Shown: positions 3,101 through 54,185 of the stretch, piece after piece | Numbering within the stretch: position 1 is the stretch's first letter | Layout of the letters: the number at the start of each line of letters is the position of its first letter | Notes under the pieces: generated by a model | Database searches by the model: none | What the model was told of the DNA's origin: nothing | Seen by the model: only the letters and a program-made list of their open reading frames with translations | DNA from: an uncultured Verrucomicrobiota bacterium | Lineage (GTDB): Bacteria; Verrucomicrobiota; Kiritimatiellia; CAIVKH01 | Length of the DNA: 64,000 nucleotides | Assembly: GCA_964388845.1 (NCBI GenBank) | Contig: CAYMCD010000004.1 | Coordinates: 452 to 64,451, forward strand | Reading direction: 5' to 3' | Translations under genes and position numbers: made by a program

Positions 3101-6100
3101 GTCCGTCAGCACCAGCAGCGCGATGGGCGCGGCCGCGGACTTCGCCGTCCTGTCCTGGCCGTCCACGATTTCGCCCGGCGCGAAATCGAACCTCGTCATC
3201 GCGTTCGACCCGTCGGACGTCGGCGTGCGCACGGCCCTCGTCAGCATCGCCAACAACGATACGAACAACAATCCCTACACCTTCGTCCTCGCGGGGGAGG
3301 GCACGGGCGCATATTCGGCCATCACGCTCCAGGGGTTCGAGGGGTCCGCCGCGGACACCTGGACCTACACCCGCGCCGCCGGCGCCGGGGATATCTATGT
3401 GGACGGCGACACAAACGCGGGCGGCGCGTATGCGCTGACCTTCCGCGGCTCGGCGAGCTCAAACTCCGATCCCTATCTCGAGTTCGACACGATTGATCTC
3501 TCCGGATACGGGTCGGTCACGCTGCGCGTGGCCTTCGCGGTCGCCGGCGCGGACAACGGTGACGACCTGGAGCTCGACCTGTCCTATGACGGCGGGACCA
3601 CCTGGAACGGGCCCGGCAGCACGACGCTGGTTTATGGGGCATCGAACACCAATCTCGGGTTTACGGGGACGGGCGCGTCCACCGTGCCGGCCAATCCGTG
3701 GACGGTCGCCCTGCCGTCCACCGCCCAGCAGGTCCGGGTCCGGATCCGCTTCGACGAATCGGCCAACGACAACACCTTCGATCGCTTCTTCGTGGACGAC
3801 ATCGAATTGTCGGGCATGGGCGCAGCGCCGACGGTGGCGCTGGGCGATGTGCTGTACAGCACGTCCGAAACCGACGCGACGGTCACCGTCCCCGTCAGCA
3901 TTTCCGCTTCCTTCTCCGCGACGGTGCAGGTGGCGCTGGCCGGTACGGCGACGGGCGGGGGAACGGACTATTCCGCCAACACCACGAACGTGATTTTCTC
4001 GGCGGGCGGGGCCACCACGTCGAACCTCGTGTTCACGCTCAACAATGACGGCGCCGCGGAGGGGCCGGAGGAAATCGGCGTCACGCTGGTCGCCGCGCGG
4101 GGCGCCAGGGTGGGCGGGCCGGCCGCCGCGACGGTCGTGATCCAGGATGACGACGCCATCACGATCATGTCCGCCAATCTCACGAGCGGAACGAACCTGG
4201 TGGACGGCACCTATTGGTACACCGAGACCAGCCAGCGCATCTTCAAACGCCTCCGGCCCGATGTGGTGGCGATCCAGGAATGGAAGTTCACGAATGCCGG
4301 CGCGCGCGCCTTCGTGGATGCCGTGTTCGGCACGAATTACTATTACTACATCGAGCCGGAGTCCGACCCGAATCCGATCCCCAACGGCGTGATCAGCCGG
4401 TGGCCCATCACGGCGTCGAACGAATGGACCGACACCTATGTCGGGGCGCGCGATCATGCGCAGGTGACGATTGATATCCCCGGGAACCGGGATCTCCACG
4501 TGGTCTCCACGCACTTCAAGGCCGGGCCGGGCGATGCCGCCACGCGCGAAAGCCAGGCCCGGGAACTGACTAACTACATCGCCGGCGCGGCATTTCCGAC
4601 CAATGATTACGTGGTGGTCGCGGGCGACCTGAACCTGACCAACCGGACGGAGACCACTTTCGTCGTGGTCACCAGCGTCGTCACCGACGCGCACCAACCG
4701 GCGGACCGGGACGGCGATCTGAACACGAACCTCGGCCGCTCGGCCCCGTACGACTTTGTGCTGCCCAACCATGTGCTGGACGCCGACCATCTGGCCGTCG
4801 CGGTGGCCGGCGTCTCGTTTGCGAACGGCGTGGTGTTCGATTCGCGCCAGTATAAAGATCATCTCACGCCCATCCTGGTCGAGGACTCCTACGAGGCGAA
4901 CCGCACGCACATGGCGGTCGTCAAGGTCTTCACGATTTCCACGTCGGCCGCGCCGCCGACCGTGACCACGACGATCGCCTCGGCGACCAACCAGACCACG
5001 GCCACGGCGGGCGGCAATGTCACGGACGACGGCGGCGCAAGCGTGACGAATCGCGGCGTGGTGTGGGCGCTGGATCCGGCGACGCCGACCGTGCCCGGCG
5101 CGCAGACGACGAACGGGACGGGCACGGGCAGCTACTCCTCGACGCTGACGAACCTGACGCCCGGCGCGACCTACAACTACCGCGCCTTCGCGCAGAATTC
5201 CGCGGGGACCGGCTACGGCGCGACCAACAGCCTGACGACGCCATGCTTCTCCGGAATCGTTACGGGGCTCGTCGCGAGCGCGACGAACGAGACCGACTTT
5301 ACCGCCGCGTGGAGCAATTTCGCCGGCGCGACGGGGTATTCGCTGGACGTGAGTACGAATGCCACCTTTGGCGGCGCGGGTAGCCCGGATCTGTTCTTCT
5401 CCGAATACGTCGAAGGGAGCAGCAACAACAAGTTCCTTGAAATCTACAACGGCACCGGCGCTTCGGTTGATCTGTCCAATTATAAGGTTCTGCATTTCAA
5501 CAACGGCGCCTCCACGCCGACCTACTCCCTGACCTTGAGCGGGACGCTGTCCGCCGGCGCGGTGTATGTGATCGAAAACAGCTCCGAGTCCCTGGGCGTG
5601 ACCGCGGATTTGTCCACTTCGTCGTCCGTCATGAACTTCAACGGCGACGACGCCATCGCCTTGACCAATACGCTGGCCGGCGGCTATGCGGATGTTATCG
5701 GCCAGATCGGAACCGATCCCGGAACCGAATGGGGGACGGGCAGTGCATCAACGGCGGACAACACCATCCGCCGCATGTCGTCGGTGACCGGCGGTGATAC
5801 CAACGGGGCGAACAGCTTCGATCCCGCGACGGAGTGGGACGGGTATGCCACGGATACTGTTTCCGGGCTGGGATCGCACACCGGGGGTGCATCACCCTCC
5901 TACGTACCCGGCTATTCCAATCGCACCGTTTCCGTGTCCGGCGCGTCCGTGACCGGATTGACCGGCGGCGCGACGTATTACTTCCGGGTGCGCGCGACGA
6001 ACGACTACTGCGCGACGGACAACTCGGCAACGCAGTCGGTGACGACGATTTCGTACGTCCCCGACGTCGCGGCGCTCGGGACGAACCTGGCGGCGATCGT

Positions 6101-9100: not shown

Positions 9101-12100
9101 CTATTGCGCGACCGAGAATTCCACGACGGGCTCGGTCACGACTGTCGTTCTGGCCGCCTCGATTGATATCCTGGGCAACGGGGCGCTGATTGTGGATGGC
9201 GACGCGACGCCGTCGCCGACCGACCACACGGACTTCGGCGGGGTGGGGCTGGTGAATTCGAACCTTGTGCGGACCTTCACGATCACGAACGCCGGGCCGG
9301 GCGCGCTCTCCGTATACGGGGTCAGCACCAGTGGCGCGGCGGCAGCCGATTTCATCGTGATTGCGCCGCCCGGCACGCCGGTGAGCGCGGACGCGACCAC
9401 CACGTTCCAGGTCCGTTTCAACCCGACCGCGCTCGGCACGCGCACGGCGACGCTGGCCGTGTCGAACAATGTGACGGGCAAGACGCTGTATGACTTCGTG
9501 GTCCAGGGCACGGGCGTCGCGGCCTCGCTGGTCGTCGCCCCGTCCAGCCTCTCGGTGACCTCGGTGCTGGGCTCGGCGCCGGCCGGCCTCGGGTTCGGTG
9601 TGACGAACAGCGGGCGCGGGGACCTGGTGTACGGCGTGGCCACCAACGTCAACTGGCTCTCCGTCAGCCCGAATGCGGCGACCAACGCCGAGACGGAAGG
9701 GCGCCAGCACACGTTGACCTTCACCGCGCCCGGTTTGCACGCCGGGGTGTCGAATGCGACCATTACGGTCACCGACACGAACGCCGTGGGCAGCCCGCAG
9801 GTGGTGGCCGTTGAATGGACCCTGACGGCCATACCGCCCGTCCTGTCGGCCGGCGTGACGAACGACGGCAACGAACTGGTTCGGATCGGCTGGACGAAGG
9901 ACTCCGGCTACGACGTGATGATCGTGCACAATCGCACCAACCCGCCCTCCGCGCCGGCGAACGGCACGTCCTACAGCGTGGGCGGGGCCGTGGGTTCCGA
10001 CGGTTCGCGCGTGATTTACAGCGGCGGAGGCGCGGAGCTGCAGCACGTCGTGGCGCCCGGCAGCGACAACTACTACGCCTTCTATTCGGTGAACAACAAT
10101 CACTACTCGACGCCTTTGTCCACCAACACGACGACGGGCGCCTATGCCGCCGGCGAAATCGTCGAGCCGTTTGCCTACACCAGCGGCGTGACCATGATCT
10201 CGCGCCAGGGCGGAAACGGCTGGGGGGCCAACTTCTGGACCGGCGACACCAACGCCTTCTCCGTCAGCAATTTGAGCTTCGCCGCGCAGACGAACTATCC
10301 GACCCCGCGCGCGAACAAGCTCGCGGTCACGCCCCAGGATGGCGGCAGCAACACGATCCGTCGCCAGTTCACCAACACCTATGCGAGCGGGCGGCTTTAC
10401 GTCGGGTATATCGTCAACTTCCAGTACAGCGGCGCCGACAAGTACGCCGGACTGTCCCTGATGTCCAACACCACCGAGCGCCTGTTCGTGGGCGAGGTTT
10501 CCACCGCCGACCTGCGGCTCGGCCTCGACGGCAGCTCGTCGAATCGCGTCCTCAACAACGGGGCGGGCAACGATTACATCGTGGTGATGCGCTACGACTG
10601 GAGTTCCGGCCTCGCGGCGGCCAGCGCGTACAAGGTCGGCACGGATGCCGTGCCCGACAGCGAGCCGACCGCGTGGGACATGATGTTGAGCAAGGCGAGC
10701 AATGCCGTCGGGCGGATCAACGGGCTCCGGCTCGTGGCGGGCACGACGGGGTCCGGCACGCCGGGGACGACGTATTTCGACGAGATCCGCGTGGCGACCA
10801 ACTGGAGCGAGTTGATCCAGATGCTGCCCAGCCGGGTCATCTATGACGGCTTCGCATCCTCCAGCGGCGCGCTTTCCGGGGGCGGCGGCGGGACGGGCTG
10901 GTCCGACACGTGGGCGATCGGCGGCGATCCCTTTGCGGACTACACAGCCACCTCGTTCGGGATCGAGAAGTCCAGCTATTACCAGCCGACCGGGAACAAG
11001 ATCGTCCTGTATGGCGATGTGAACGGGCGCTGGATCACGGCCAGCCGGACCTTCCTGGAGCCGTTCACAAACGGCGCCGTCTATTTCTCCTGGATGATGA
11101 ACTACGAGTTCAACGGCACGGACAAATACGCGGGGCTCAAGCTGCTCGATGGCGGTTCCGAGAAGGCCTTCGTCGGCAAGGTGTCGGGCGCGGACAAGGC
11201 CCTCGGCATTGATTCCAGTTCGAGCAACCAGACCTCCACCAACGACATCGAAAACGCTTCGGGCAACGATTACGTCGTCGTCGCGAAATACGACTTCGCG
11301 ACCCGCGTGCTCAGCGCGACGACGTACCGCACGATAACCAACGCGGTCGCGGAGGAACCCAACGGCTACTGGCTGGTCACCACGACGCAGGGCGTCGGGC
11401 ACATCACCAGCTTGACGGGCGTCCGCCTCTCCATCGGCGCCGGCGCGAGCGTGCAGGTGGGCGATGTTTATTACGACGAAGTCCGCGTGGGCACCAACTG
11501 GTTCGAGGTCACCCGCAAGGACGGCGAGGCCCAGGCCCCGGCGATGGCGAACGGACCGACGCCGCGCCTGCTGTACGTCGGCACGAACTACAATCCGGCG
11601 CTCAACCCGCAGGGCATCCTGAACGACATCACCGTCACGGACGCGGACCTGATCAACACCGCCGATCCGCTGGATATCGCGATCCTGTGGAGCAACTCGT
11701 ACGGCGTGTTCATGACCAACGCGAGCCCGGCGATCAAGAACATCAGCTCCCGCCTGGGCCGCGTGACGCCGAACTACGATCCGGTCGTGCTGACCGGGAG
11801 TCAATTCCAGTCCACCGGCGCGGACGCCTCGTTCACCAATTTCGCGGGCAACAACGGCTCAACGGTGGTGACGACCTACCAGCACCGGGCGTTCAACATC
11901 ACCAACTCCACGTACGACGACGCGTACTACATCACCGTCAGCGCGGAGAACAACAACCTGGGCGGCGGGACGTTTGCCGCGCCGAACGCGGGCGACGCGA
12001 TCCCGTACTGGCGCGCGCTCACCGTGAACACCGCGCTGCAGTTCTACGTCCAGGACGACGACATCAGCTATCCGGAATTGCTCGAATTCACGATAGACGG

Positions 12101-15100
12101 GGTGGGCGGCTCGGGCGTCTCGAACCTGTCCGCCGGCGGGATCGCGGTCATCGGCGTGAACGGCACCGCGACGGGCGATCTGGAGCGGTTCTCCTTTGTC
12201 GTGCTGGCGCCGTTCCCCGCCGGCACCGTGATTGAGTTCACGGACTGCGGCTGGGATCCGACCGACCTGAGCGGCACGGGCGACTGGCACCGGGTCACGG
12301 AATTTCACACGAACAAATGGGTCGCCACCGGCAATATTGACGTCGGACGCGTGATCGAGCTGACCCTGAACGACATCAACAACGGCGGCGACCAGGTGAC
12401 GATTTTCCAATATTACGGGGCCACCACGGCGTCGAACGATTCCGAAAACGTGAATTTCGTCTACGCCGTGAACCTGGGTCCGCGCTGGTACGATCCGCCG
12501 GGCGATCCCATCCCCGACGACAACCAAAGCTCCGCCCTCTACCGCGGGTTGACCAACGGCACGACGGCCGTCAGCGTGCCGCTGGACTACGGCGTGGCCA
12601 ACGCCCGCTACATCGGCCCAATGACCGGCACCGCCTCCTACCTGCTGCTCCAGATCAGCGACTCGAACAACTGGGAATCGCTCGCGACCGGCTACCACGA
12701 CATCACGAATTACAGCTTCGAGGTGACCGGCGCGGGCGCCTTCGATTGGAACACGCCGGAGCTGTCCGACGCGCAGGTGCTGGCGGGCGGCTTCATGGTG
12801 ACCAACATCCTGCGCGACCTCGACAGCGGCGTGCTGGCCTCCAACACCTCGTTCGGGCACGCCCCGTATTTCATGCTGTTCAACACAAACGACCAGGTCG
12901 TGGTCTCGAACCTCTTCGTCGTGAGTTTCACGAACGGGACGAGGACGGTCATCACCAACGCGAACAACACCTTCTCCGGACAGTACGATCGCATCACGAT
13001 CGGGATGGGCGAGGCCCTGGTCGCCTGGTCCGACGCGGACGGCGATCGTTCCCTGGACACCTTGATGACAACGAGCCGCGTGCCCGTGCTCATCTTCGAC
13101 GACGACCCGGACGAACCCGTCGCCGGGGCCATGACCCTGTTGAACGGGTCGAACACCGTCACTGAGCAGGCGGGACCGGTCCAGCTGCTTGCGGCGTGGA
13201 ATTTCAACGCCAGCAACACCACGGCCACGTCCGGTTCCGGCACGTGGAGCGACAACCTGCTGACCGCGCCGACCTACGGAAATGCGGGAACCACCATCAA
13301 CGCCGTCTCCGGCGATACGGCGGGCGCCGACATCACGATCACCGCCGGAAGCGGACTGCAGAACAACGGCCGCTACATCCAGTTCCTGCTCAACATGTCC
13401 GGCAGCGAAGGCCTCGTGATGACGTACTCCGCGCGCCGGTCCGGGACCGGCTTCACCACCAACCTGGTCGCCTATTCGACCGACGGGGTGTCGTTCACGC
13501 CGTTCGCGACGAATACGCCGACCCAGGACAGCCACGCCCTGCGTTCCAACGACTTCGGCGCTGTGACCGCGCTGGACGACCAGGGCGCGGTATACATCCG
13601 CATCACGCTGGACGGCGCCACCGCCACCGCGGGCAACAACCGGTTCGACAATTTCCAGTTCAACGCGTTGCGACGGGTCTTCACCCTCACGGACGGCGCG
13701 CTCGCCCTCGTGGCCTCCACCAATCCGCTCTCGTTCAGCTTCAGCGTCTACGACGAGACCAGCGGCGTGGCGCGCGGAACGTCGTCCGACGGGACCAACA
13801 TGAATGTTTCAATTCCCGGCATGGCGACAAACAACACCACGAATTATGCCGCGTCCGCCAGCAGCGCCGGTACGCTCGCGCCCTCGTCCACCAGCCTGTG
13901 GCAGTTCACCTCCTTCACGTACGCGCAGATCGGCGATCTCTATGGAGGCGGGACGAACCTGATCCCCGTCACGGCGAATATCAGCGATCTCGACAACGAT
14001 CGCCTGGACGATCGCCTGCAGCTCACGAACCGTTCGTACGGCACCTTCTTTGTGACCGATGACGACACCAACACGCCGGTTGTCGCGAATGTAAACCTGT
14101 CCGGCGCGTCCGCCGCGCCGTTCGTGGTCGCCACGAACGGCGTCGCGCCGACGAATCTGATCCGCAATTTCATCGCGCGGCGGACCGGCTCGGGAACGGA
14201 CACCCTGACGACCGTCACGGACCAGGAGCTGGCCGATGCGACCAACATCCAGTTCCAGTTCGTCTTCGGCGTCCGCGACGCCCATTCCGGCGTTTCCCGC
14301 GGGGTCTCGGGGACGACCAACGAGGTGATGAGCTTCAGTCTGGGCACCAATATCACGGGCAATTTCACGGACTACAGCGCCGCGCTCTCCACGCCGCAGG
14401 CCACGACCAATCTCCTCCTCACGAACTACTGGACCTTCGGCAATTTCGACAGCGCCGCGATCAATGCCCTGATGGCCTCCACCGGAAATCCCGTACACAT
14501 CACCATGCCCGACCTCGACGACGACCGTCCGTCCGACCGGGCCACCGACTACAGCCGCCTGGTCGGCTACGTGCGCGTCGTGGACGACGACATCCGCGGG
14601 CCGATCATCAATTCGGCGGATATCGCGGGCGCCTACGGAACAAATGTGACGATGTATTCCAGTTTCGAGACCAACCAGAACTGGCCCGCGTCCTCGCTCG
14701 GCAGCGGGACGCCGTGGACCAACGATGCCACGACGGGCCGGTGGATCGCGGATGGGGCGACGTTTGGCGCGCTGGACCCCAAGATCTCCGGCACGCGTCG
14801 CATCGGCCTGCTCACCAATTCGCTCGCGGAGCCGCGTTGGATCCAGCTTCCGCCCATCGCCGATCCCGGCACGCTCGTGCTGTTCGCGGGCCGGTTCAGC
14901 GGAAACGATGTCACCCTGCGGGTCGAACGCGCGGACGGCGCCAGCTGGATCAGCGTCGGCAGCCGGGTCGTCACCAACCTGAATCCGGAATTCGAGCTGT
15001 TCTCCTGGGATATCAACGTCACCGGCGTGACGACGCTCCGCGTCGTGCACGCGGGGACCGGTCCGCAGGTCTACATGGACGATATCAGCGTCTACCCGCA

Positions 15101-23024: not shown

Positions 23025-24449
23025 ATGAACGACCGCCGCCCGCTCTTCCTCGCCAACCGCCCCGTCGCGCCCAACCACGACCTCGAGGTGCGCGACAAGT
23101 TCACGGGGGCGCGCATCGCTTCCGTCGCCCAGGCCGATGCCGCGCTCATCGAACAGGCGTTTGCGCGCGCGTCGGCCGCCGCGGAGGCCCTGCGGGCCTG
23201 GCCCGCGCACCGGCGCCAAGCCGTGCTGGATCATCTGGTCGGGCGCGTGCGGGAGCGCCAGGAGGAATTGGCCGCGCTGCTGTGCGCGGAGGCGGGCAAG
23301 CCGATCCGGGACGGCCGGGGCGAGGTGACGCGGCTGGCGGATACGCTCCGCATTTCCACCGAAGAGTCCGTCCGGCTCACCGGCGAGGTCATGCCGCTGG
23401 ACATCTCCCCACGCACCGCGGGTTATGCGGGCATGTGGAAGCGCGTGCCGATCGGGGTTTGTTCGTTCATCTCACCCTTCAATTTCCCGCTCAACCTTGT
23501 CGCCCACAAAATCGGACCCGCCCTCGCCGCCGGATGTCCCTTCGTGCTCAAGCCCGCAAGCCTGACGCCGCTGGGCGCGCTCGTGCTGGGGGAGATCCTG
23601 GCCGAGACGGATTTGCCTGAAGGCGCCTTCTCCATTCTCCCGTGCCCGCGCGACGGGGCGGATCGCTTCGCGACGGACCCGCGCATCAAACTGCTCTCGT
23701 TCACCGGCTCACCCGACGTCGGCTGGGCGCTCAAGGCGAAGGCGGGCAAGGCGAGGGTGACGCTGGAACTCGGCGGAAACGCGGCGGCGATCATCGAGGC
23801 CGATGCCGACCTCGGCGACGCCGTGAGGCGCATCCTTGCCGGCGCGTTCTATCAGTCGGGGCAGAGTTGCATCAGCGTGCAGCGGATCATCGCGAACGAG
23901 TCGGTGTACGCGGAGGTGCGCGAGCGTCTTGTGGAGGAGACGCGGAAATTGAAGAGCGGCGACCCGCGCGAGGAAGACACCTTCATCGGCCCGATCATTT
24001 CCGCGAAGGAAGCGGACCGGATCGAGCGGTGGATCGCGTCGGCCGTCGCGCGCGGCGCGCGCCTGCTGTGCGGCGGCGGGCGCCTCGGAAACGTGATCGA
24101 GGCGACGCTGTTGGAGCGCGTGCCCGCGGACGAAAAGGCGTATGCGGAGGAGATCTTCGGGCCCGTCGCGATTCTCGAATCCGTCCCGGATTTCGACGCC
24201 GCGCTGGCCCGCGTGAATGCCGGCCGCTACGGCCTCCAGGCCGGCGTCTTTACGCGCGACATCCGGAAGGCGTGGCGCGCCTGGGATGAGTTGCAGGTCG
24301 GCGGCGTCCTGGTCAACGAATCCCCCGCCTGGCGCGTGGACCACATGCCCTATGGCGGGACCAAGGACAGCGGACTCGGGCGGGAGGGCGTCCGCTTCGC
24401 GATGGAGGACATGACCGAGCTCCGCATGTTCGTCCTGCGCCGCGCCTGA
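23025..24449 (+). CDS. NAD(P)+-dependent aldehyde dehydrogenase family protein
   Basis: GGAGGAG RBS at 23013-23019 and ATG at 23025. ALDH hallmarks are present: ..FNFPLNLVAHKIGPALAAGCPFVLKPAS.., ELGGNAA, and a catalytic Cys region GQSCISVQR. Confidence 0.9.
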   Translation: MNDRRPLFLANRPVAPNHDLEVRDKFTGARIASVAQADAALIEQAFARASAAAEALRAWPAHRRQAVLDHLVGRVRERQEELAALLCAEAGKPIRDGRGEVTRLADTLRISTEESVRLTGEVMPLDISPRTAGYAGMWKRVPIGVCSFISPFNFPLNLVAHKIGPALAAGCPFVLKPASLTPLGALVLGEILAETDLPEGAFSILPCPRDGADRFATDPRIKLLSFTGSPDVGWALKAKAGKARVTLELGGNAAAIIEADADLGDAVRRILAGAFYQSGQSCISVQRIIANESVYAEVRERLVEETRKLKSGDPREEDTFIGPIISAKEADRIERWIASAVARGARLLCGGGRLGNVIEATLLERVPADEKAYAEEIFGPVAILESVPDFDAALARVNAGRYGLQAGVFTRDIRKAWRAWDELQVGGVLVNESPAWRVDHMPYGGTKDSGLGREGVRFAMEDMTELRMFVLRRA

Positions 24450-24503
24450 ACTTGCCGGCGCCTGTCCCGCCGGGCGCGGGCCCATCCGCGGGGGGGGCGA
24501 AAG

Positions 24504-24566
24504 TTCCAACGTCTGTAAAAACAGTTCGCGCGCACTTCCAACGTCTGTAATTTACAGACGTTGGAA
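24504..24566. repeat. Three copies of the same AT-rich element as at 102-150: 24504-24518 and 24536-24550 (reverse orientation, 32-bp register) and 24552-24566 (forward); the last two form a 31-bp perfect palindrome TTCCAACGTCTGTAA-T-TTACAGACGTTGGAA
   Basis: Read directly. On the minus strand this locus reads ATTACAGACGTTGGAAGT..13 nt..TTTTTACAGACGTTGGAACT, the same two extended variants as at 98-153 but in swapped order. It sits between the convergent 3' ends of the aldehyde dehydrogenase gene (end 24449) and the minus-strand gene ending at 24585. Confidence 0.75.
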
Positions 24567-24584
24567 AAATGGAAGGTGGCCGTT

Positions 24585-26960
24585 CTATTCCCCAACGGTA
24601 TGAGCGGTCCACCGGGCCTGACTGGGGTCGGCGGCGCGCACCCAGAGCCGGCGCGCGGCCGGCGTGTCCGCGGGATCCCAGACGTCGCCCTCCGCCAGCG
24701 AAAGGGCCAGCCGGTTGACGGTCATCGGCGACCGGCCGCTCATCAGCCCGATCGGCCCCCCCAGCTGCATGCGGTCGGTGCGGGCGACGCATTCGCCGTC
24801 CACCCATGCGGAAAGGCCGTCCTGTTCGCGCCGGACGGCGATCTCGCGGGGTTGCGCGGTCGGTTGCGGCGCGCCGCGCGTGGCGATGCGGGTGAGGCGG
24901 CCGTCCTCGACCCGGCCGAGGATCCAACCGCTTTCCTTCCAGTGCCAGCCGAAGCAGTCGTAGGTGCGCGCGCTCCGCATGTTGAAGACCAATCCGCCGA
25001 GCTGCTCGCCCGTGTCCTCGCGCGTGGTTTCAATCGTCAGCGCCGCGGCAAATTCCGCGCGCGCGTCGGCGGAGGCGCCGTCGAGGGGGATTGCGGCGTC
25101 GCCGTCCGGGTGGGAGAGGGTCCATCCGTCCGCGCCGAGCCGGATGCCGGGATCGGGCCGCGGCCGGGCGAGCAGGTCCTCGAACCATGTGATCGCCGGA
25201 GGGTCCCCATCCGGATCGTCCGCCGTCGCGCGCAGGCGCGCGGGATGTTCGCTGTCCGGCGCCACTCGGGGGGCGGATGGCGGCGCATTGTGCCGGTGGA
25301 TCGTGATCGGGACCGGCGTGCTGCGGACCGGCGCCCCGTCGGGAAACAGGGCGGAGAGGCGGAGCGGGACCGGCCCCGGCCCGATGCGGGCGGCGGCGAC
25401 GGCGATGCGCTGTTCCTGCGTCGCGGCGGGTCCGTTCCAGACGGGCCGCTCGTGCGCGGTGAGGACGAGGCCGGTGGCGCCGGCGGTCGCCTGGACGATC
25501 AACTCGATGGTCTGGTGCAGGGCGGCCGGCGCATGGGGCTCCGCGGCGGGGCGAAGCATCGCGGCGCGGCCCAGATTGTCCACCGCGAAGCCCGCGCGCG
25601 CGTGGCCCTGGCGGCGGATGGGGCCGGGCGAGTAGAGGACGGCGTGGAGTTCGTGGTAGCCGTCGGCCAGCTCCCGGGTGTCGAACCGGAGCCCCGTGGC
25701 GCGGCCGCCCGCCGGGAGCGAGCGCCCGTCGAGCAACATCAGGTAGGTGGCGCCGGGGACCGGAACGATGGGCGACGCGACGAAGGCGGCCTCGCCGCGC
25801 AGCGGTATTTTCGCGTCGTCCATGCTGACGAGCGCCATCGGCGCGGGGCGATCCCAGGGTTTGCACAGCGGGTCGCCGACGAGCAGCAGTTGCAGCGGGC
25901 TGCGGACGGCCTGCAGATAGCTTTCGAGCAAGGTGCATCCGCTGGCGTAGTGGAAAAAGAGGCGCGCGTGGGGAAACTTGGTCCAGATCGCGAGCGGCTC
26001 GGTGACGGTTCCCGCGCTGCCGGCGGCCCCCAGGGCGAGCCAATAGCCCAGTTTGGTCTGCTCGTGCGCGTAAAAGTAGCCCGCCAGGCTGGTGAGGTTG
26101 TCGGCGACCGACCCCGGCTGCAGGCGGCCCCACGGTTTGTCCGTGAAGGCCGTGCCGAGCATCAGGCCTGAGAGCGGGGCCGCGGCGGCCGGCGGATTCG
26201 AGGAGACCGTTGCGGCGAGGCCGAGGCCCTTCAGCTCGCGCGCGGCCGGCCCAAACTGCCAGCTCCGGCATCGGACGCGTACATCGTCGCTGAGGTGGAA
26301 GTGGACCGGGTCGCTCGGCGCGGCGCCGTCCGCCGCGGCCGCTCGCCGGAGTCCGGCAATGACCGTATCCGCCGACAATCCCCGTGCGCCGGTGTGGCCC
26401 AGCAGCATGGCGGGAAGCGGCATATCCTCCTTCAGCGCCATGGCGAATTCCTGGAGGGAGCCCGGCGGCGCGCCTTCGTTTCCGGGCCGGTCCGGCCCGC
26501 GGAAGAACGGCGACCGGAAGACGCCCTTGTCCACCTGTTCGCGCGGCGGGAAGACTCCTCTCGTGAACGTGGCGCCGGTCAGGGACATGGGCGAGGGTGT
26601 GGTGACGCGGAAGGGAAAATCCGCCGAATAGATCCATGCGAGGATGTGGTCGCCGATCCCGCGCGCCTCGATTTCGCGGCGGACGGGTTCGACGATCCAT
26701 CGGTTGAAATCCTCCAGGGACGCCTCCGCGCGGATGTCCCATGCGGTGTCGGGCAGGTCGAGGTAGATGATGTTGGCGGAGGGGATGCGGCGCAGATGGG
26801 CGTAGTGATGGGCGATTTCGAGGGAGTCGCGCGAGCGCGCGTTGACGATGAGTGCGATTTCGTGCGGGCCCTGGGCGGGCGCGGGCGACACGGCGAGCGC
26901 GCAATGGATGAGAACACAGCGAATGACGAATGACGAATGGCGCATGGCGGAGCGAGTCAT
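24585..26960 (-). CDS. Secreted hypothetical protein (791 aa) with a C-terminal concanavalin/LamG-like region; last gene of the exosortase-EpsI-WbaP operon
   Basis: Signal peptide MTRSAMRHSSFVIRCVLIHCALAVSPAPAQG. The start lies 3 nt downstream of the wbaP-like stop. C-terminal motifs (..GWHWKESGWILGRVEDG..AWVDGECVARTD..) resemble a lectin-type jelly-roll. There is no PEP-CTERM tail. Confidence 0.7.
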   Translation of the reverse strand: MTRSAMRHSSFVIRCVLIHCALAVSPAPAQGPHEIALIVNARSRDSLEIAHHYAHLRRIPSANIIYLDLPDTAWDIRAEASLEDFNRWIVEPVRREIEARGIGDHILAWIYSADFPFRVTTPSPMSLTGATFTRGVFPPREQVDKGVFRSPFFRGPDRPGNEGAPPGSLQEFAMALKEDMPLPAMLLGHTGARGLSADTVIAGLRRAAAADGAAPSDPVHFHLSDDVRVRCRSWQFGPAARELKGLGLAATVSSNPPAAAAPLSGLMLGTAFTDKPWGRLQPGSVADNLTSLAGYFYAHEQTKLGYWLALGAAGSAGTVTEPLAIWTKFPHARLFFHYASGCTLLESYLQAVRSPLQLLLVGDPLCKPWDRPAPMALVSMDDAKIPLRGEAAFVASPIVPVPGATYLMLLDGRSLPAGGRATGLRFDTRELADGYHELHAVLYSPGPIRRQGHARAGFAVDNLGRAAMLRPAAEPHAPAALHQTIELIVQATAGATGLVLTAHERPVWNGPAATQEQRIAVAAARIGPGPVPLRLSALFPDGAPVRSTPVPITIHRHNAPPSAPRVAPDSEHPARLRATADDPDGDPPAITWFEDLLARPRPDPGIRLGADGWTLSHPDGDAAIPLDGASADARAEFAAALTIETTREDTGEQLGGLVFNMRSARTYDCFGWHWKESGWILGRVEDGRLTRIATRGAPQPTAQPREIAVRREQDGLSAWVDGECVARTDRMQLGGPIGLMSGRSPMTVNRLALSLAEGDVWDPADTPAARRLWVRAADPSQARWTAHTVGE

Positions 26961-28385: not shown

Positions 28386-29150
28386 CTAGCTGCGATCTGC
28401 ATCCTGCACTGCGATCAGAGGATACAGTTCCCTCACGAAGGCGTCGAGCCTGTCCAGCGGCGCGTCGCCGGGCTGGTCGTAGAGACCGACGACCGAAATG
28501 TAGGCCCACGGATACGCCCGGTTGTGGAGGATCCGATCCCAGGCCATCCAGAACATGCGCGCGGGATGCGAGGGGGTTTCACGTCCGCGCCCCGCGAACC
28601 AATAGGCGAAGAACATGCGGCCTGCGACGGCGCGGCCATCGGGGAGGCGGCGGGTTTGCTGGACGTCCAGCAGGGTGACGTCCAGCGGGGGAAACCCGGG
28701 CCGCTCGATCCGGCGCGTGCGGCTGGCGACAATCTCCGATCCCTCCGCCAGCAGGCAGACCTCGGGCCGGTGGATGCTCGATCGGTGTCGCCCGCTGAAC
28801 ACGATGGCTGCCTGCAGGGGCGTGCGATAGCCGTCGCGGCTGTACTGGCGTTTGTCCGCCACGGTGTCGCCCGGCAGCACCAATCGTTCAAAGGTGGTCA
28901 AGGCCTCCAGCGGCGCCCCGCAGTCGGGACACGCCTCGCCCGATCCGGGATCGGCGGCGAGAACGAGCCGTCCGTGTTCGGGATTCTGGCAGTAGAGCAC
29001 CCGCTTGCCCGTCCACGGCCCGATCCGATCCGGCAGGGTCCGGGAGACCGACGGGCGGTCAATGAAGGTGATGCGCGTGATGTCCGGCATCACGGACGCG
29101 AGCCCCAGCATCAACGCCGCGGAGAGGAAGAGGGCATGCGCCGGTTTCAT
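28386..29150 (-). CDS. EpsI-family exosortase-associated protein (copy 1)
   Basis: Signal peptide MKPAHALFLSAALMLGLASVMP; the EpsI signature ..SIHRPEVCL..; and a conserved C-terminal ..FFAYWFAGRGRETPSHPARMFWMAWDRILHNRAYPWAYISV... It is a paralogue of 49116-49868. Its start forms an ATGA overlap with the upstream exosortase stop (29147-29150). Confidence 0.8.
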   Translation of the reverse strand: MKPAHALFLSAALMLGLASVMPDITRITFIDRPSVSRTLPDRIGPWTGKRVLYCQNPEHGRLVLAADPGSGEACPDCGAPLEALTTFERLVLPGDTVADKRQYSRDGYRTPLQAAIVFSGRHRSSIHRPEVCLLAEGSEIVASRTRRIERPGFPPLDVTLLDVQQTRRLPDGRAVAGRMFFAYWFAGRGRETPSHPARMFWMAWDRILHNRAYPWAYISVVGLYDQPGDAPLDRLDAFVRELYPLIAVQDADRS

Positions 29151-30127
29151 GGCAGCCCCTCCCGGTCGCGCGACGGGTTCGCTTCGCCCGTCGGTTCCAT
29201 GAGCGAGCGCAGGCGCGCGCGAAAATCCACGGCATTCAGGCGGGCCAGCCGGACGGCCATCCACAGGAAGAGAAGGAATCCCGGGAGCAACACCAGGGCG
29301 GGAACTTGTTCGTCAATGCGCGCGGCGGAACCGGGCGAGGCGAATTCCGACCACAGGCAAAGCGCGACGCCGCGCGCGACCGTGGCGAGCAGGAACGCGA
29401 GCGGCGACAGGGCCACGACCAGCAGCCGGCGCGCCGGCTTGAGCCGCGAGAGTTCGGCCACGAACACGGCGAGCAGCATGCACGCGAAAAGGGCGTACAC
29501 GCTGCTGGTCGGGTCGGCGAGGTCAACCGCCCAGGCGCGGGTTTCGCTCTCCATCAGCACGGAGCCGACGGCCTGCACGCCGAGTCCCACGCCGGACGCA
29601 AGGACCGCCGCCGCGCGCGCGGCGGCGATGCGCATCGGGTTCAGCAATTGGTCAAAGAAGTTCAGGGGCATGGAAAGCAGCAGCACCAGCGTCGGATAGG
29701 CGAGTGCGCGCAGGAGCGCTCCTCCCCAGGCGAACGCCGGGATCGCCCACCACAACAGGAACAGGGCGAGCAGGCTCAACCGGGTTTGCTGCGCCTTCGC
29801 GCCGAACACGTGGAGGGCGAGTGCGGCGAGGACGATCGCGAGGGCGGGCCAGCAGACGCGCGACGGCGCGTGCGCCCAGGCCCCGCGCCTGCGCCACGCG
29901 AGCCAGGCTGCCAGGGGGACGGCCAGGAAGTTCAGGGAGTAGCTCGTCTGGTGCCAGTCCACCAGCCAGCGCCCGTACAGCCAGCGGAACGCGGAGGGGT
30001 TCTGCTTGTGCGCCAGATAGCCGATATCCGTGACGCCGTGGAACGCAAACAGGAACCACCACGCCGCCAGCGCAGACGCGGCGGCCAGCGCGGTGGGCCA
30101 TCGGCCGGATGGGAGAAGACCTCGCAT
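29147..30127 (-). CDS. Exosortase-family membrane protein (copy 1) with non-canonical residues at the catalytic positions (DPTSS and TVAR in place of DPCSG and NIAR)
   Basis: 326-aa polytopic protein sharing LGAKAQQTRLSL(L/F)..L(L/I)(W/I)WA(I/V)P and overall colinearity with the canonical exosortase at 48181-49146. Aligning the two by eye, ..FDVADPCSGIRSL../..AIVGNIARIVVV.. in copy 2 corresponds to ..AVDLADPTSSVYAL../..LLATVARGVAL.. in copy 1. Confidence 0.75.
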   Translation of the reverse strand: MRGLLPSGRWPTALAAASALAAWWFLFAFHGVTDIGYLAHKQNPSAFRWLYGRWLVDWHQTSYSLNFLAVPLAAWLAWRRRGAWAHAPSRVCWPALAIVLAALALHVFGAKAQQTRLSLLALFLLWWAIPAFAWGGALLRALAYPTLVLLLSMPLNFFDQLLNPMRIAAARAAAVLASGVGLGVQAVGSVLMESETRAWAVDLADPTSSVYALFACMLLAVFVAELSRLKPARRLLVVALSPLAFLLATVARGVALCLWSEFASPGSAARIDEQVPALVLLPGFLLFLWMAVRLARLNAVDFRARLRSLMEPTGEANPSRDREGLP

Positions 30128-30146: not shown

Positions 30147-31157
30147 CTATTTCACCAGACGCGCCCAGGAGGGCGGCAGGTTGCGGGGGACTTCGATCCC
30201 CTCGAAGGGTTTGCCCGAGCGGGCGCCGGTCTCTTTGACCCAGGCGGCCATTCGCGCGAGTCCCTCGTCCAGGGGGACGTTCCGGCAGAGGCCACCGAAA
30301 TGCCGCCGGACCTTCTCGTGTGACGAAAAAGCGTGGACGACCTCATTCCGGGCCGGCAGGTGCCGGACCTGTGGTTTCACGCCCATGGCTTTCGCCACGG
30401 ATTCGGCGAGCGTCAGGACGGAATAGGGCGTGTCCGCGCCGACGTTGAAGACCTCGTTGAGCGCCTCCGGTCGTTCGATCGCTTGCGCGATGACGGGCGC
30501 CACGTCATCTATGTAGCTGAACGCGCGCGTCTGGTTCCCGTCGCCAAAGACGGTCATGGGCAATCCCTGGAGGATCTGGTTCATGAAGATGCCGATGACG
30601 TTCCGGTAGGGATCGCCGATATTCTGCGATTCCCCGTAGACATTGTGCGGGCGGAAGACGATGTAGGGCAGGCCGAACATCTCGTGGGCCTCCTTGAGAT
30701 CCAGCTCCACCGCGAATTTTGCGATGCCGTAGGGATCCTCGGGCATCGGCGTGGCGTCCTCCGTCATCGGGGCCTGGTTTCGTCCGTAGACCGCGATGGA
30801 GGAGGTGAAGACGAAGCACTTGACCGTGCCGGTGTTGACGGACGCGTTGATGAGATTGACGCTGCCGATCAGGTTGTTCGAATAGTTGAACCGCTTGATG
30901 AAATGGCTCAGCCCCTCGGCCGCATAGGCGGCGAGATGAAACACGTACTCAAACCGGTGTTCGGCGAACAGGCGATCCACGAGCGCGTGGTCGAGGATGG
31001 AGCCCTGGACAAAGGAGGCGCCCCGGGGGACATTTTCGGTGAAACCGCCCGAGAGATCGTCCATCGCCACGACGCGATGGCCCCGTTCGAGCAGGCGCCG
31101 GGCGACATGCGATCCGATGAAGCCGGCCGCGCCGGTGACGAGGGTGGAGGGTTTCAT
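30147..31157 (-). CDS. NAD-dependent epimerase/dehydratase (UDP-sugar 4-epimerase-like SDR)
   Basis: Starts MKPSTLVTGAAGFIGSHVARRLLERGHRVVAMDDLSGG (Rossmann GxxGxxG). Has the catalytic YGIAK. The ORF-track N-terminal extension to 31847 is Arg/Pro-rich junk overlapping the next gene. Confidence 0.85.
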   Translation of the reverse strand: MKPSTLVTGAAGFIGSHVARRLLERGHRVVAMDDLSGGFTENVPRGASFVQGSILDHALVDRLFAEHRFEYVFHLAAYAAEGLSHFIKRFNYSNNLIGSVNLINASVNTGTVKCFVFTSSIAVYGRNQAPMTEDATPMPEDPYGIAKFAVELDLKEAHEMFGLPYIVFRPHNVYGESQNIGDPYRNVIGIFMNQILQGLPMTVFGDGNQTRAFSYIDDVAPVIAQAIERPEALNEVFNVGADTPYSVLTLAESVAKAMGVKPQVRHLPARNEVVHAFSSHEKVRRHFGGLCRNVPLDEGLARMAAWVKETGARSGKPFEGIEVPRNLPPSWARLVK

Positions 31158-31213
31158 GGGGATTCCTTGTTCAACGGCGGCATTAAACGCCGGGGCGGAC
31201 GAGCGAGGCAACG

Positions 31214-32797
31214 TCATTCTTGCGGTTGAGGCGCCCACAGGCGGTAGTGGCGGGACTCGGCGACCGGCGTGTAATGCTGCGCCAGCCAGGGGCCGTAACA
31301 GCGCATGAAGGGGATCCGGTGGCTGTCTCCCTGGGCCATCAGGACCCAGGGGCGGTCCTGGAACACAAATTCGGGCGGCGGGTGGTGGGCCTCGCTGAAG
31401 TTGAATCCGGGATACCAGAACGCCGCGCCGCCCCGGGGCGGCGGCCGTTGCAGGCCGAAGGAAAAGGCGTCGCTGTAGTCGAGTCCCTGGATGCGGGCCC
31501 CGGCGGGCGCGTGCGCGCGGACCAGCGCGAGGCCATCGTTGATCTGGTCCGCGACGGATTTCCGTTTCGCCGAAAGGCGGAAATCGGCCAGGGCGTGCGC
31601 CGCGAAAGCGGTTCCGGGCGGCGGCGGCCTGCGCGCCGATCCCCAGCTGCTCGCGAGCGACGCGGCATCGCCAAGAAACTGCGGCGCCCAGAGGATGGCC
31701 AGCAGGACCGCCGCCCACCTCTTTTCCGGACGGCGTCCGGCGACCCGCCGGTGAATGGCCATGAGGACGCCCAAGGCGACGGCGACGGCGAAGGCATAGT
31801 GCTGCCGTTGCTGGCTCGCGAAGGCGATGAGGACGGAGAGTCCCCACAATCCGAACAGCGCGAGGGCGACCCGCGCGCCCTGGGCGCGCGTGAGCGCGGT
31901 CCGCAGCAGCGCCCAGAGCCCCGCGAACACCAGCAGCGCGGGTGCGCCTTTGGCCGCGCTGCCCAGCAGGCGTCGCAGTTGCGAGTCTTCATAGCCGAGT
32001 CGAAAGGGGGCCGTGATGTCGCGGAGCCAGTCGCCGGCGTTCAGGCCGAGCAGGGCATGGAGCGCGGCGGCCGTCAGCGCGGCCCCGAGTGCCAGCGGCA
32101 ACAGACTGCGCGGACGCAGGCCGGACAGCAGCGCGAACCCCATCACGACACCCGCCGCCAATCCGTAGCTGAATTTCGTCAGCGCGAGCAGGGTGAGCAA
32201 CGCCCCGGCCGCCCCATGATCGAGGGCGGGTTCGGCCCCGCGTGCGTTCCGCGGCGGGACCAGCAGGATCCAGGCGAACACCGACAGCAGCCCCTCCGCA
32301 ATGCGGTTGTAGAGGAAGGCGTGGCTCCGGACATCGTAGGCTTCGCCGGCCTGGCGGGTGGCCATCACGAGGGCCGCGCAAAACAGCGCGGCGGCCAGGG
32401 CGAGCCCGGGCGTGGTCCGGCGCCGCAGCATGAAAAAGGAAGCCGCCGCGAGCAGCGCGCCGAGCACGGCCTGGCCGGCGGCGATGCCGCCCACGCAAGG
32501 GCCCTTGAGCTTCATGCCCAGCGCGGTCAGGTAGGCGAGAAACGTGCCCGTCGTGAGGGAAAAATCGGTGTGTGGGACCTGGCCGTGCAGGATGCGCCAC
32601 CCGCTGTTCAGCCAGAAACAGGTGTCCCAGACCGATAGATTCTGTTCTCCGCTTCCCGCCGTCCACAACGACGCGAAGGCCAGCGCGGCGGCCAGGAGCA
32701 GCGCCAGGGCCGCCGCGCGCCAGGAGACGAGCGGGGCTTGCTGGCGGTTATCGCCGTCTGCTACAACGTCCGTCTCTTCCTGGGAATCGAACAGCAT
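31214..32797 (-). CDS. Polytopic membrane protein of unknown function (about 10-12 TM segments); start uncertain
   Basis: ORF 31214-32842 is hydrophobic throughout (..ALLLAAALAFASLWTAG.., ..LLTLLALTKFSYGLAAGVVMGFALLSGL..). Any ATG start (32842, 32809 or 32797) overlaps or abuts the divergent GT1 start at 32796, so the true start may be an internal GTG or TTG. Confidence 0.5.
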   Translation of the reverse strand: MLFDSQEETDVVADGDNRQQAPLVSWRAAALALLLAAALAFASLWTAGSGEQNLSVWDTCFWLNSGWRILHGQVPHTDFSLTTGTFLAYLTALGMKLKGPCVGGIAAGQAVLGALLAAASFFMLRRRTTPGLALAAALFCAALVMATRQAGEAYDVRSHAFLYNRIAEGLLSVFAWILLVPPRNARGAEPALDHGAAGALLTLLALTKFSYGLAAGVVMGFALLSGLRPRSLLPLALGAALTAAALHALLGLNAGDWLRDITAPFRLGYEDSQLRRLLGSAAKGAPALLVFAGLWALLRTALTRAQGARVALALFGLWGLSVLIAFASQQRQHYAFAVAVALGVLMAIHRRVAGRRPEKRWAAVLLAILWAPQFLGDAASLASSWGSARRPPPPGTAFAAHALADFRLSAKRKSVADQINDGLALVRAHAPAGARIQGLDYSDAFSFGLQRPPPRGGAAFWYPGFNFSEAHHPPPEFVFQDRPWVLMAQGDSHRIPFMRCYGPWLAQHYTPVAESRHYRLWAPQPQE

Positions 32798-48180: not shown

Positions 48181-49146
48181 ATGGACACGCGCATTTGGAG
48201 CGAGCGCTGGCGGCTGGCCGCCCTGACGCGGGACGATCTGATCCGGATCGGCCTGGTGTCGGCCATGCTGGCCCTGATTTTCATTCTGTTCCATTTCCAG
48301 GGAAATACGACCGACGTGCGGGCGTTCGGGCGCTCGGCCCTTGCGTGGATGATCGAGCGGTGGGATGACGACGACGGCACGGGCGACTACTCCCACGGCT
48401 GGCTGATTCCGATTGTCAGCGGATTCATCGTCTGGATCAAGCGCAGGGAATTGGCGGCCGCGCCGAAATCGGTCAGCGGCGCGGGGCTCGCCCTGTTGGT
48501 GACGGCCCTGTTCCTCCACTGGTTGGGCGCCAAGGCCCAGCAGACGAGGTTGTCCCTCTTCGGCCTGGTGCTGCTGATCTGGGCGGTTCCGTTCTATCTG
48601 CACGGCTGGCGGACGGCCAAAATGCTCATCTTCCCGTGCACCTATCTCATCTTCTGCATCCCGTTGAACTTCCTGGATTCCCTGACGTTCCCGCTGCGCA
48701 TTTTTGCCACGATCATCTCCACGTCCATGTTGAACGGCCTGGGCATCGCGGCGGAACGCTCCGGGTCGGCCATCTATTCCATGGCGGCGGGCGGTTTCAG
48801 TTTTGACGTGGCCGATCCGTGCAGCGGCATCCGCTCCCTGCTGGCGCTGACGGCCCTGACCGCGGTGTACGCCTATTTCACGCAGAAGACGCTGCTGCGC
48901 AAATGGCTCCTGTTCCTGTCGGCGATTCCCCTGGCGATCGTCGGCAACATCGCCCGCATCGTGGTCGTGGCCATTGTGGCCGAGGCGTTCGGGGAGCAAC
49001 TGGCGCTCGGCCTGTTCCACGATTATTCCGGCTACGTCGTCTTTTCAGTCGCGATCGGTCTCATGCTCGGGGTCGGCGCGATGCTCAGCACCGATTTCAG
49101 GGAGGCGCGCGAACGGTGGAAGCACGCACTGTTAAACCCCACCTGA
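48181..49146 (+). CDS. Exosortase (canonical; copy 2)
   Basis: Eight TM segments; ..LGAKAQQTRLSLFGLVLLIWAVP..; catalytic-region motifs ..FDVADPCSGIRSLLALT.. and ..LAIVGNIARIVVVAIVAEAF... Confidence 0.9.
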   Translation: MDTRIWSERWRLAALTRDDLIRIGLVSAMLALIFILFHFQGNTTDVRAFGRSALAWMIERWDDDDGTGDYSHGWLIPIVSGFIVWIKRRELAAAPKSVSGAGLALLVTALFLHWLGAKAQQTRLSLFGLVLLIWAVPFYLHGWRTAKMLIFPCTYLIFCIPLNFLDSLTFPLRIFATIISTSMLNGLGIAAERSGSAIYSMAAGGFSFDVADPCSGIRSLLALTALTAVYAYFTQKTLLRKWLLFLSAIPLAIVGNIARIVVVAIVAEAFGEQLALGLFHDYSGYVVFSVAIGLMLGVGAMLSTDFREARERWKHALLNPT

Positions 49147-49868
49147 TCGTCCTGGGTCTTCTGGCGCTGACCTCCCTCGCGCTGGCCTTCACCGTGGACG
49201 TCGGGGCCAGCGATGAGGCGGGGATCAAGGTTTTCCTGCCCGACCAGGTGGGCGAGTGGAAGGGCGACGAGCTGCGCTTTTGCCAGGCGCCGGCCTGCCA
49301 GGCCTCGATCTTCTTGAGCGACGTCAAGGAGGGCGGGCTTTGTCCGAAATGCGACGGTCCGCTGGCCACAATGTCCAAGGCCGAAAAGGATTTGTTGCCG
49401 TCGGACACCGAGGTCCTGAAGAAGGAATACCGGGACGCGCGCGGCCGGCGGATGTTTGCCTCGATCGTAATGAGCGGGCGCGAACGCGCGAGCATCCACC
49501 GCCCGCAGGTCTGCCTGGTGGGGCAGGGCAACGAGATCGTGCGGTCATCCGTGATCCAGGTCCCGCTGGATGGACGGGAGGATTTAGGCGTCATGCTGCT
49601 CGACATGCTCCGCCGCTGGCGCGCCCCGGATGGCCGGCAGAACGAATACAACACGTACTATGCGTATTGGTTCGTCGGCAAGGGACGGGAAACCCCGTAC
49701 CACTCGCTCCGCATGTTCTGGATGGCCTCCGACCGCGTCCTGCACAACCGCTCCCACCGGTGGGCCTATATCTCCGTTTCCGGGGACCGCGCCGCCGACG
49801 AGGAGGACTATCGCGGCGAGGTCACCGCCTTCATCCGCGAGCTGTACCCCGAGATGGTCATGCAGTAG
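49116..49868 (+). CDS. EpsI-family exosortase-associated protein (copy 2)
   Basis: GTG start at 49116 is in frame with ORF 48819-49868 and overlaps the exosortase end by 31 nt. Signal/anchor [25 protein letters not shown]; ..SIHRPQVCL..; ..[41 protein letters not shown]... Contains a Cys-rich insert (RFCQAPACQ...CPKCDGP). Confidence 0.8.
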
Positions 49869-54056: not shown

Positions 54057-54185
54057 AGGGGGAGGGGAGTTGGGAGAAAGGAACTATACTACTGAGCAAT
54101 GATGAGTTGACCGATTCTCATGGCGGCTTGGTGTAAGGAATCGGGAAGGGGGAGCCGGTCCTCTATTCCAACTCCTGTCACCCCG

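Follow-up and report, generated by a model that had tools for sequence, protein, structure and literature searches.

We analysed a stretch of 64,000 nucleotides (the window) from an uncultured Verrucomicrobiota bacterium of the Kiritimatiellia, and in it a short repeated element at positions 24504-24566, which lies between two converging transcription units. On one side is an aldehyde dehydrogenase gene on the plus strand (aldDH, 23025-24449; Pfam Aldedh, E = 7.5e-140; start probable, from the translation), the last gene of a sucC-sucD-aldDH unit that points toward the element. On the other side, a minus-strand gene for a 791-aa TIGR03790-family protein (24585-26960) is the last of an exosortase-EpsI-Bac_transf operon. 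Pfam searches gave the order on the minus strand as the 791-aa protein, Bac_transf (WbaP-like), EpsI (DUF3485), exosortase and epimerase, in agreement with the original prediction, made from the sequence alone, that an aldehyde dehydrogenase gene and an exosortase operon converge here. The name TIGR03790 is the label carried by homologs of the 791-aa protein in JGI and NCBI sources, and its closest homologs are from Kiritimatiellia.

The element is built from the 15-mer TTCCAACGTCTGTAA (reverse complement TTACAGACGTTGGAA), which has five exact matches in the window against 0.02 expected; none of 100 shuffled sequences reached five. Three of them form the junction array. Site A (24552-24566) carries TTACAGACGTTGGAA on the plus strand, with its nearest edge 18 nt from the stop codon of the TIGR03790-family gene (24585-24587). 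Site B (24536-24550) and site C (24504-24518) carry it on the minus strand as a direct pair with a 17-bp spacer (24519-24535), and are thereby 32 bp apart start to start, three helical turns. Site A is inverted relative to B and C and offset by 16 bp from B, and A and B together make a perfect 31-bp palindrome, TTCCAACGTCTGTAA-T-TTACAGACGTTGGAA, at 24536-24566. The three copies and the palindrome that had been reported were thus found again.

The other two exact matches (102-116 and 134-148) form a second array at 102-148, in which two direct sites carry TTCCAACGTCTGTAA on the minus strand, 32 bp apart. Both loci contain the extended variants TTTTTACAGACGTTGGAAC and ATTACAGACGTTGGAAG, as had been noticed, with their order swapped between the two. 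Spacers of 13-14 nt had been described at both places; the regularity is real, and its sharper form is a 17-bp spacer between 15-mer cores, since each locus has a direct pair of TTACAGACGTTGGAA at 32 bp start to start. A T-run precedes one copy of each pair, site C at the junction, and the third, inverted copy is found at the junction only. Because the spacing and the preceding T-run are also conserved, constraint extends past the 15-mer core, as proposed. A relaxed half-site scan of the window revealed no array beyond these two loci, and weaker single matches were no more frequent than chance predicts (5 against 6.7). One weak match, with three mismatches (54166-54180), 6 nt past the gyrB stop codon and upstream of gyrA, is likewise at chance level.

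The second array lies at the gene for a giant surface protein of 5,600 aa, whose open reading frame (ORF) ends at 16910 and is open to the window start. The probable start codon is ATG 120; it opens a plausible signal peptide, MTRCYYRRWKFCAAAAALWSYLWV, and the two sites would therefore straddle the start codon, with site 134-148 encoding YYRRWK within the signal peptide. RNA structure of this 5' pair was not above that of shuffled sequences (z = 0.07). The one orthologous fragment of the giant gene that was found has a signal peptide and no array in the ~165 nt upstream, up to the contig end.

We then looked for the motif elsewhere. A scan for the exact 15-mer over one genome per prokaryotic species gave at least 108 loci, most of them lone chance matches in unrelated taxa. 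Three Kiritimatiellia metagenome-assembled genomes (MAGs) had at least 6, 5 and 2 matches. Among the matches listed, 13 were Kiritimatiellia loci, of which 12 could be assessed, and 11 of these 12 had a second direct copy 31-32 bp away; two had an extra copy at the 16-bp offset, like the window. The partner copies, which were not chosen by the search, were usually slightly degenerate: the core ACAGACGTTG was retained and position 13 was free, and in one MAG the partner was TTCCAAnnnTTGGAA. Among 95 unrelated control loci there was a single such pair, TTCCAACGTCTGTAA-N17-TTCCAAGGCTTGGAA, on a contig labelled Sandaracinaceae (L071). Judged from this variation in the partner copies, the window motif is an asymmetric lineage variant (TTACAG-ACG-TTGGAA) of a 6-3-6 palindrome with the half-site TTMCAR and the general form TTCCAA-nSn-TTGGAA.

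A metagenome scan for two copies of the window type gave no match, indicating that this exact variant is rare in that collection. The same kind of scan with a pair of degenerate palindromes at a distance of 32 bp gave at least 120 contigs, with a GC content of 0.5-0.73. Among the matches listed, nearly all read TTCCAA-NNN-TTGGAA, preceded by a T-run and followed by an A-run, and the arrays had two sites (93 arrays), three (28), four (11) or five (3), at a density of about one array per 30-60 kb. The sites follow the consensus of their own lineage, and mixed arrays exist (L071 and L054). Full-text literature searches on the motif sequence and notation, and on Kiritimatiellota with palindromes or regulons, returned nothing relevant; the 15-bp palindromic site family is apparently widespread and previously undescribed. 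The array of L071 (6030-6076), in a Sandaracinaceae (Myxococcota) bin, joins a window-type and a general-type site inside a GT1 gene, and this contig may be mis-binned. Genuine TTCCAA-N3-TTGGAA pairs 32 bp apart were also present on five viral or prophage contigs of IMG/VR (L239, L241, L243, L244 and L245; GC 0.54-0.61), and two further IMG/VR contigs (L240 and L242) held unrelated true tandem repeats.

The spacing between sites was then measured on the metagenome contigs after removal of one seed pair per contig. Among the matches listed, the free spacings were 31 bp (25 cases), 32 (35), 30 (2), 22 (2), 41-42 (6) and 50-51 (2), with rarer values of 62, 74, 83, 94 (2) and 16 (1). Apart from the lone 16, all are whole multiples of ~10.4 bp, that is, whole DNA turns. 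In the profile of the family, information is concentrated in the arms (1.6-2 bits per position), with ~0-0.2 bits in the spacers, which differ between arrays even within one MAG. This combination of helical-repeat spacing with information in the sites alone is characteristic of proteins that contact one another while bound to a single face of B-DNA. The central position 7 is C or G in 98% of sites, and positions 6 and 8 favour K and M, a dyad-symmetric preference; these features agree with a symmetric dimer but not with an RNA triloop. Positions 6 and 8 showed no covariation beyond their marginal frequencies, and downstream of the arrays we found no fixed signal and no -10-like element at a set distance.

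We next compared the junction with its orthologous loci. The order exosortase-EpsI-Bac_transf-TIGR03790 converging on aldDH-sucD-sucC is kept in four relatives, and the synteny of the aldDH unit is conserved in L109, L110 and L114. In L109 (71% amino-acid identity of the flanking protein) the junction reads TTACAGCGTCTGTAA-A-TTCCAGACGTTGGAA-N17-TTACAGACGTTGGAA, starting 3 nt past the stop codon. In L113 (56%) a partial array, TTCCAAGGTCTGGAA-A-TTCCAGACCCTGGA, starts 2 nt past the stop codon, and the contig ends there. No array was found at the junction of L110/L111 (55%) or at that of L114 (56%), where the intergenic region is just 25 nt. In the alignment of the window with L109, the sites are conserved, the B-C spacer matches at 11 of 17 positions and the flanks cannot be aligned. 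The comparison of orthologous loci had been proposed as a way to tell a conserved site from a selfish repeat, and the array kept at the junction in L109, and partly in L113, points to a conserved site as opposed to a random selfish repeat. The L113 contig ends inside its array (12385-12414), which suggests that such repeats break short-read assemblies.

A further conserved locus was found in nadE. In L028, Pfam places CN_hydrolase at residues 43-282 and NAD_synthase at 325-605 of NadE, and an in-frame array (2331-2377) occupies the linker between these two domains. The two-site array is present in this linker (alignment columns ~295-345) in 9 of 16 aligned Kiritimatiellia orthologs of 65-95% identity. 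Linker peptides such as SNVCKN...LSTSVN, SKGWKS...LPRVGT and SNHWKK...VPTI are two motif copies 32 nt apart translated in different reading frames, with a clade-specific variant of the motif in each lineage. Since the two sites are read in two different frames, their conservation is at the nucleotide level. The DNA of L237 carries TTCCAAGGGTTGGAA twice, at 10735 and 10767 (array 10735-10781), and in L236 (10747-10793) both sites have decayed by one mismatch each. We conclude that the nucleotides of the sites are under selection, or subject to some homogenising process, at individual loci over long times. The ~60 kb around the nadE genes of L028, L237 and L236 contain no second array; in all three, nadE is followed by a GAF/sigma-54-activator/HTH_8 gene, and in two of the three then by amtB and glnB. 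Some NadE orthologs have a second in-frame insertion hot spot at alignment columns ~520-560 (e.g. HHGDTESTE...PRPPCLRGE), which is unrelated and looks like the translation of another GC-rich palindromic repeat.

Arrays are mostly intergenic, near gene ends and starts. In the MAGs they precede start codons by 16-70 nt, at unrelated genes that include those for acetyl-CoA synthetase, homoserine dehydrogenase, metX, kpsF, low-molecular-weight (LMW) phosphatases, an aldo-keto reductase and a ketosynthase; they are mostly oriented toward the gene, with three reversed. Many arrays on metagenome contigs begin 1-12 nt past a stop codon.

With moderate confidence, we interpret the 15-mers as a docking array for an oligomeric DNA-binding protein, that is, as candidate sites bound cooperatively on one helix face. 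Each 6-3-6 palindrome or pseudopalindrome would probably be bound by a dimer, and dimers on adjacent sites, three turns (31-32 bp) apart, would touch on the same helix face. A tetramer or longer oligomer could thus form and bend or wrap the DNA, as in NrdR box pairs or Lrp-type clusters. From the pattern of the sites we infer protein binding, the oligomeric state and an effect on transcription. The complex at 24504-24566 would sit behind the last gene of the exosortase/exopolysaccharide (EPS) operon, between the converging units, where it would most plausibly be a protein roadblock or boundary and, less likely, a regulator of antisense or read-through transcription.

Several observations weigh against this interpretation. 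Such varied contexts are unusual for a transcription-factor operator: among the matches listed, 98 arrays are flanked by called genes on either side, 61 of them between co-directional, 25 between divergent and 12 between convergent genes. These proportions are approximate because genes on metagenome contigs were called with a crude codon-position-GC caller. One array lies between rplX and rplE inside a ribosomal protein operon, and ~14% of arrays (21 of 151, matches listed) are spanned by coding-looking ORFs, at inter-domain linkers. Pfam confirmed single genes across the array for NadE, DinB (between the HHH and little-finger domains), an OlsF-like acyltransferase-GNAT fusion, GT1 and an ArsR C-terminus. 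Nor is there a coherent regulon, as 177 Pfam families occur among 150 flanking proteins (sulfatases 5, ArsR 3). No protein was identified as the binder of the arrays, and a phmmer search with E. coli Lrp against the ORFs of ~0.8 Mb of array-bearing DNA gave no match. No transcription-factor family was clearly prominent among the neighbours, though ArsR-type genes adjoin four arrays. Finally, the site of the window clade is strongly asymmetric, unlike what is expected for a simple homodimer.

The same diversity of neighbours bears on the suggestion that the arrays link regulation of the giant surface protein to the EPS/exosortase operon. Like arrays also adjoin unrelated housekeeping genes (acs, hom, metX, kpsF, glyA, rplE and nadE), and because of this spread over unrelated genes and families a specific link between the two loci is unsupported.

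Two of these contexts deserve description. In L135 (3703-3783) rplX (L24) and rplE (L5) are 77 nt apart, a gap taken up by a two-site array that starts 3 nt past the stop codon and ends 12 nt before the Shine-Dalgarno sequence. In L004 an ArsR-family gene has the array (5050-5096) within its 3' coding part, and an LMW-phosphatase/ArsC-like gene follows directly downstream of the array; arrays in L123, L163 and L124 also have ArsR-like neighbours, either by chance or as a hint at the binding protein. An autoregulated ArsR-type factor was considered and not favoured owing to inconsistent placement, with one array upstream, two downstream and one in the 3' coding part of the gene, and the association is probably due to chance.

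Other explanations were weighed against phased protein sites. The original prediction had offered an RNA hairpin acting on both convergent transcripts and had proposed that its folding energy be computed. The 31-nt palindrome indeed folds at about -21 kcal/mol on either strand (-21.1 and -21.3 kcal/mol; z ~ -8), and the reported lack of a U-tract also stands, with AAAAAUGG following the hairpin on the plus strand and GUGCGCG on the minus strand. As an explanation of the family, the hairpin fails. An RNA-level element, either a U-tract-free terminator or a structure that protects mRNA 3' ends from 3' exonucleases, would agree with the start of the element 2-18 nt past a stop codon in the window, L109 and L113, with the hairpin potential kept in L109 (-13 and -9.6 kcal/mol) and L113 (-18.2), and with the terminator scan of 24200-24900, which found no intrinsic terminator. 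We nevertheless regard it as improbable, given that the U-tract is missing on both strands and that hairpin potential arises automatically when near-palindromic sites are juxtaposed. It also leaves the third site and the 5' array unexplained, as a single window-type site has 0 kcal/mol of RNA structure. The family spacing tracks the DNA helical repeat, and neither the C/G centre nor the symmetric K/M preference is expected in a hairpin loop. On the sense strand in co-directional contexts, mismatches showed no clear G-U bias (G-U 14, A-C 8). There is a hairpin at the junction because two inverted near-palindromic sites adjoin, so that it is probably a by-product of the site layout, one that may add 3'-end structure to both convergent mRNAs.

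The strongest competing explanation is a palindromic repeat like the repetitive extragenic palindromic (REP) sequences, REPINs or Rickettsia palindromic elements (RPEs), selfish or domesticated, which would spread through intergenic DNA and tolerant protein linkers, be kept uniform by its own mobilising enzyme or gene conversion and have no regulatory role at single loci. We consider it rather unlikely, although much of the distribution speaks for it: the sites are palindromic and numerous (about one array per 30-60 kb), they occur in all intergenic contexts including convergent junctions and operon interiors, and pairs were found on the five viral or prophage contigs. The L113 contig terminates inside an array, the linkers of NadE, DinB and the OlsF-like protein hold in-frame insertions that resemble Rickettsia palindromic elements, and NadE tolerates another in-frame palindromic insertion at columns ~520-560. 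Against this, each copy has its own spacers and flanks, so that arrays are not duplicated whole, and orthologous sites persist across protein identities of 56-71% (junction) and 65-95% (nadE) while the spacers vary. The 25 commonest neighbour families included no Y1/RAYT-type transposase, which is a weak test. Transposition leaves the strict helical phasing unexplained, and neither it nor RNA folding predicts such phasing with information in the sites alone. Both a terminator and a selfish repeat are less likely than phased protein sites. A pair of recombination sites had also been suggested, through which inversion or excision of the 24-kb giant-gene segment would be mediated by the arrays at ~102-148 and 24504-24566. 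The two arrays are mutually inverted and bracket the giant gene and its neighbours; even so, the idea is unsupported and very improbable, as like arrays occur at dozens of unrelated single loci, within operons and coding sequence, and the window ORFs scanned hold no recombinase, integrase or transposase domain. Moreover, the junction array is kept in relatives, and no array was seen in the ~165 nt upstream in the one orthologous fragment of the giant gene that was found. Most likely, the arrays are neither mobile repeats nor recombination sites nor switches specific to one locus.

We compared the arrays with known systems of similar geometry. The NrdR box has a consensus of about acaCwAtATaTwGtgt, and the sites here are TTCCAA-nSn-TTGGAA or TTACAGACGTTGGAA. 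NrdR tetramers bind two 16-bp boxes with a 15-16 bp linker (PMC13584703, PMC12051234), and this binding depends on helical phase (PMC13584703, PMC12051234, PMC9110341). The arrays resemble such box pairs in having 15-bp sites, a 16-17 bp spacer and a 31-32 bp period. Whereas NrdR uses two boxes at nrd promoters only, the present arrays have two to five sites, at roughly 100 mixed loci per genome, including coding sequence, and no nrd genes were found beside arrays among the 25 commonest flanking families and the genes scanned individually. Lrp-type proteins bind clusters of semi-palindromic 13-15 bp sites, two or three turns apart, as cooperative dimers; the DNA is wrapped around tetramers or octamers, and the complexes can be roadblocks (PMC2995911). 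Like the operators of this Lrp/AsnC (feast/famine regulatory protein, FFRP) family, the sites described here are clustered, palindromic or semi-palindromic, and whole turns apart on one DNA face, and arrays of two to five sites would fit an Lrp-type octamer. In contrast to the degenerate, A/T-rich-centred Lrp sites, the sites of this family have almost unvarying arms and a C or G at the centre, and they also occur inside coding sequence and operons. The geometry therefore matches NrdR and Lrp-type clusters, whereas the sequence, scale and contexts match neither.

Tandem palindromic dimer sites about three turns apart also nucleate the oligomers of sigma-54 enhancer-binding proteins such as NtrC. 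A point of likeness is the array-bearing nadE followed by a GAF/sigma-54-activator/HTH_8 gene. Unlike NtrC-type sites, the arrays lie close to start codons (16-70 nt), and there is no enrichment of sigma-54-like promoters: -24/-12 elements (GG-N10-GC) gave 12 matches in 96 kb near arrays (within 300 bp) against 133 in 790 kb overall, or 1.25 versus 1.68 per 10 kb. The motif itself was rejected as a sigma-70, extracytoplasmic function (ECF) or sigma-54 promoter element, as the promoter scan found none and the GGAAC-to-CGT spacings are unlike those of ECF promoters. The words TTGGAA and TTCCAA recur in the IclR/AllR operators TGGAAATnATTTCCA and KTTGGAAWAWTWTTCCAAC, which are bound by tetrameric regulators, and tandem IclR sites are usually 18-22 bp apart (PMC8222616). 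The half-sites here run TTCCAA...TTGGAA, in contrast to TTGGAA...TTCCAA in AllR, and their spacing is 32 bp. The arrays thus fully fit none of the NrdR, Lrp, IclR and NtrC systems.

Among repeats, REP sequences, bacterial interspersed mosaic elements (BIMEs), REPINs and RPEs are likewise short, multicopy, mostly extragenic palindromes, often found just past stop codons; RPEs are sometimes in frame within proteins, as are some arrays here, and REP-type elements are bound by host proteins. Whole REP units are copied with their loops or linkers and are largely species-specific, whereas here the 15-bp sites alone are conserved and helix-phased, and loci persist across deep divergence. CRISPR arrays differ in having repeats of ~23-50 bp, unique spacers of ~26-72 bp, many units and cas genes; the present repeats are 15-21 bp, with spacers of 11-17 bp and two to five units at many loci, and no cas domains were found in the window ORFs scanned.

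We tentatively extend the docking-array interpretation to a chromosome-wide system in Kiritimatiellia and related uncultured lineages, although we rate this extension as a realistic chance that is less likely than not. A putative oligomer on arrays every ~30-60 kb would be an architectural or boundary element, such as a topological or transcriptional insulator, and not a gene-specific regulator. If true, this would explain why arrays are long kept between convergent genes, within operons and in frame in linkers such as that of nadE. Kiritimatiellota are known mainly from metagenomes and, to our knowledge, almost nothing has been reported on their gene regulation or chromosome organisation. The motif is rich in information, easily recognised and helix-phased, and it could be used as bait for the putative binding protein and for mapping a regulon or boundaries in any MAG of the group; the nadE linker is a test case for a DNA site maintained inside coding sequence. 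For annotation, the element at 24504-24566 should be recorded neither as a terminator nor as a CRISPR-like array or recombination site, and no specific coupling of the giant adhesin to the exosortase operon should be assigned.

The remaining features of the neighbourhood lie outside the repeat family. Directly past the aldehyde dehydrogenase stop codon, RNA folding predicts a GC-rich hairpin on the plus strand (24459-24499); it includes the run of eight G at 24490-24497, which was present as reported, lacks a U-tract and may provide the 3'-end structure for the aldehyde dehydrogenase operon. Rfam at the gathering threshold gave zero matches anywhere in the window. A small ORF or small RNA downstream of the junction array was rejected as a candidate since the window and L109 have no conserved sequence there, and an ORF antisense to aldDH was rejected as a gene because its codon-position pattern is that of a shadow frame. 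The epimerase ORF (30147-31847) is 566 aa long against 336 aa in its orthologs, and its start was probably called too far upstream. The window also contains two EpsI-like (DUF3485) genes (28386-30127 and 48819-49868) and, besides the 5,600-aa protein, a second large surface protein of 1,851 aa with Calx-beta and DUF11 domains.

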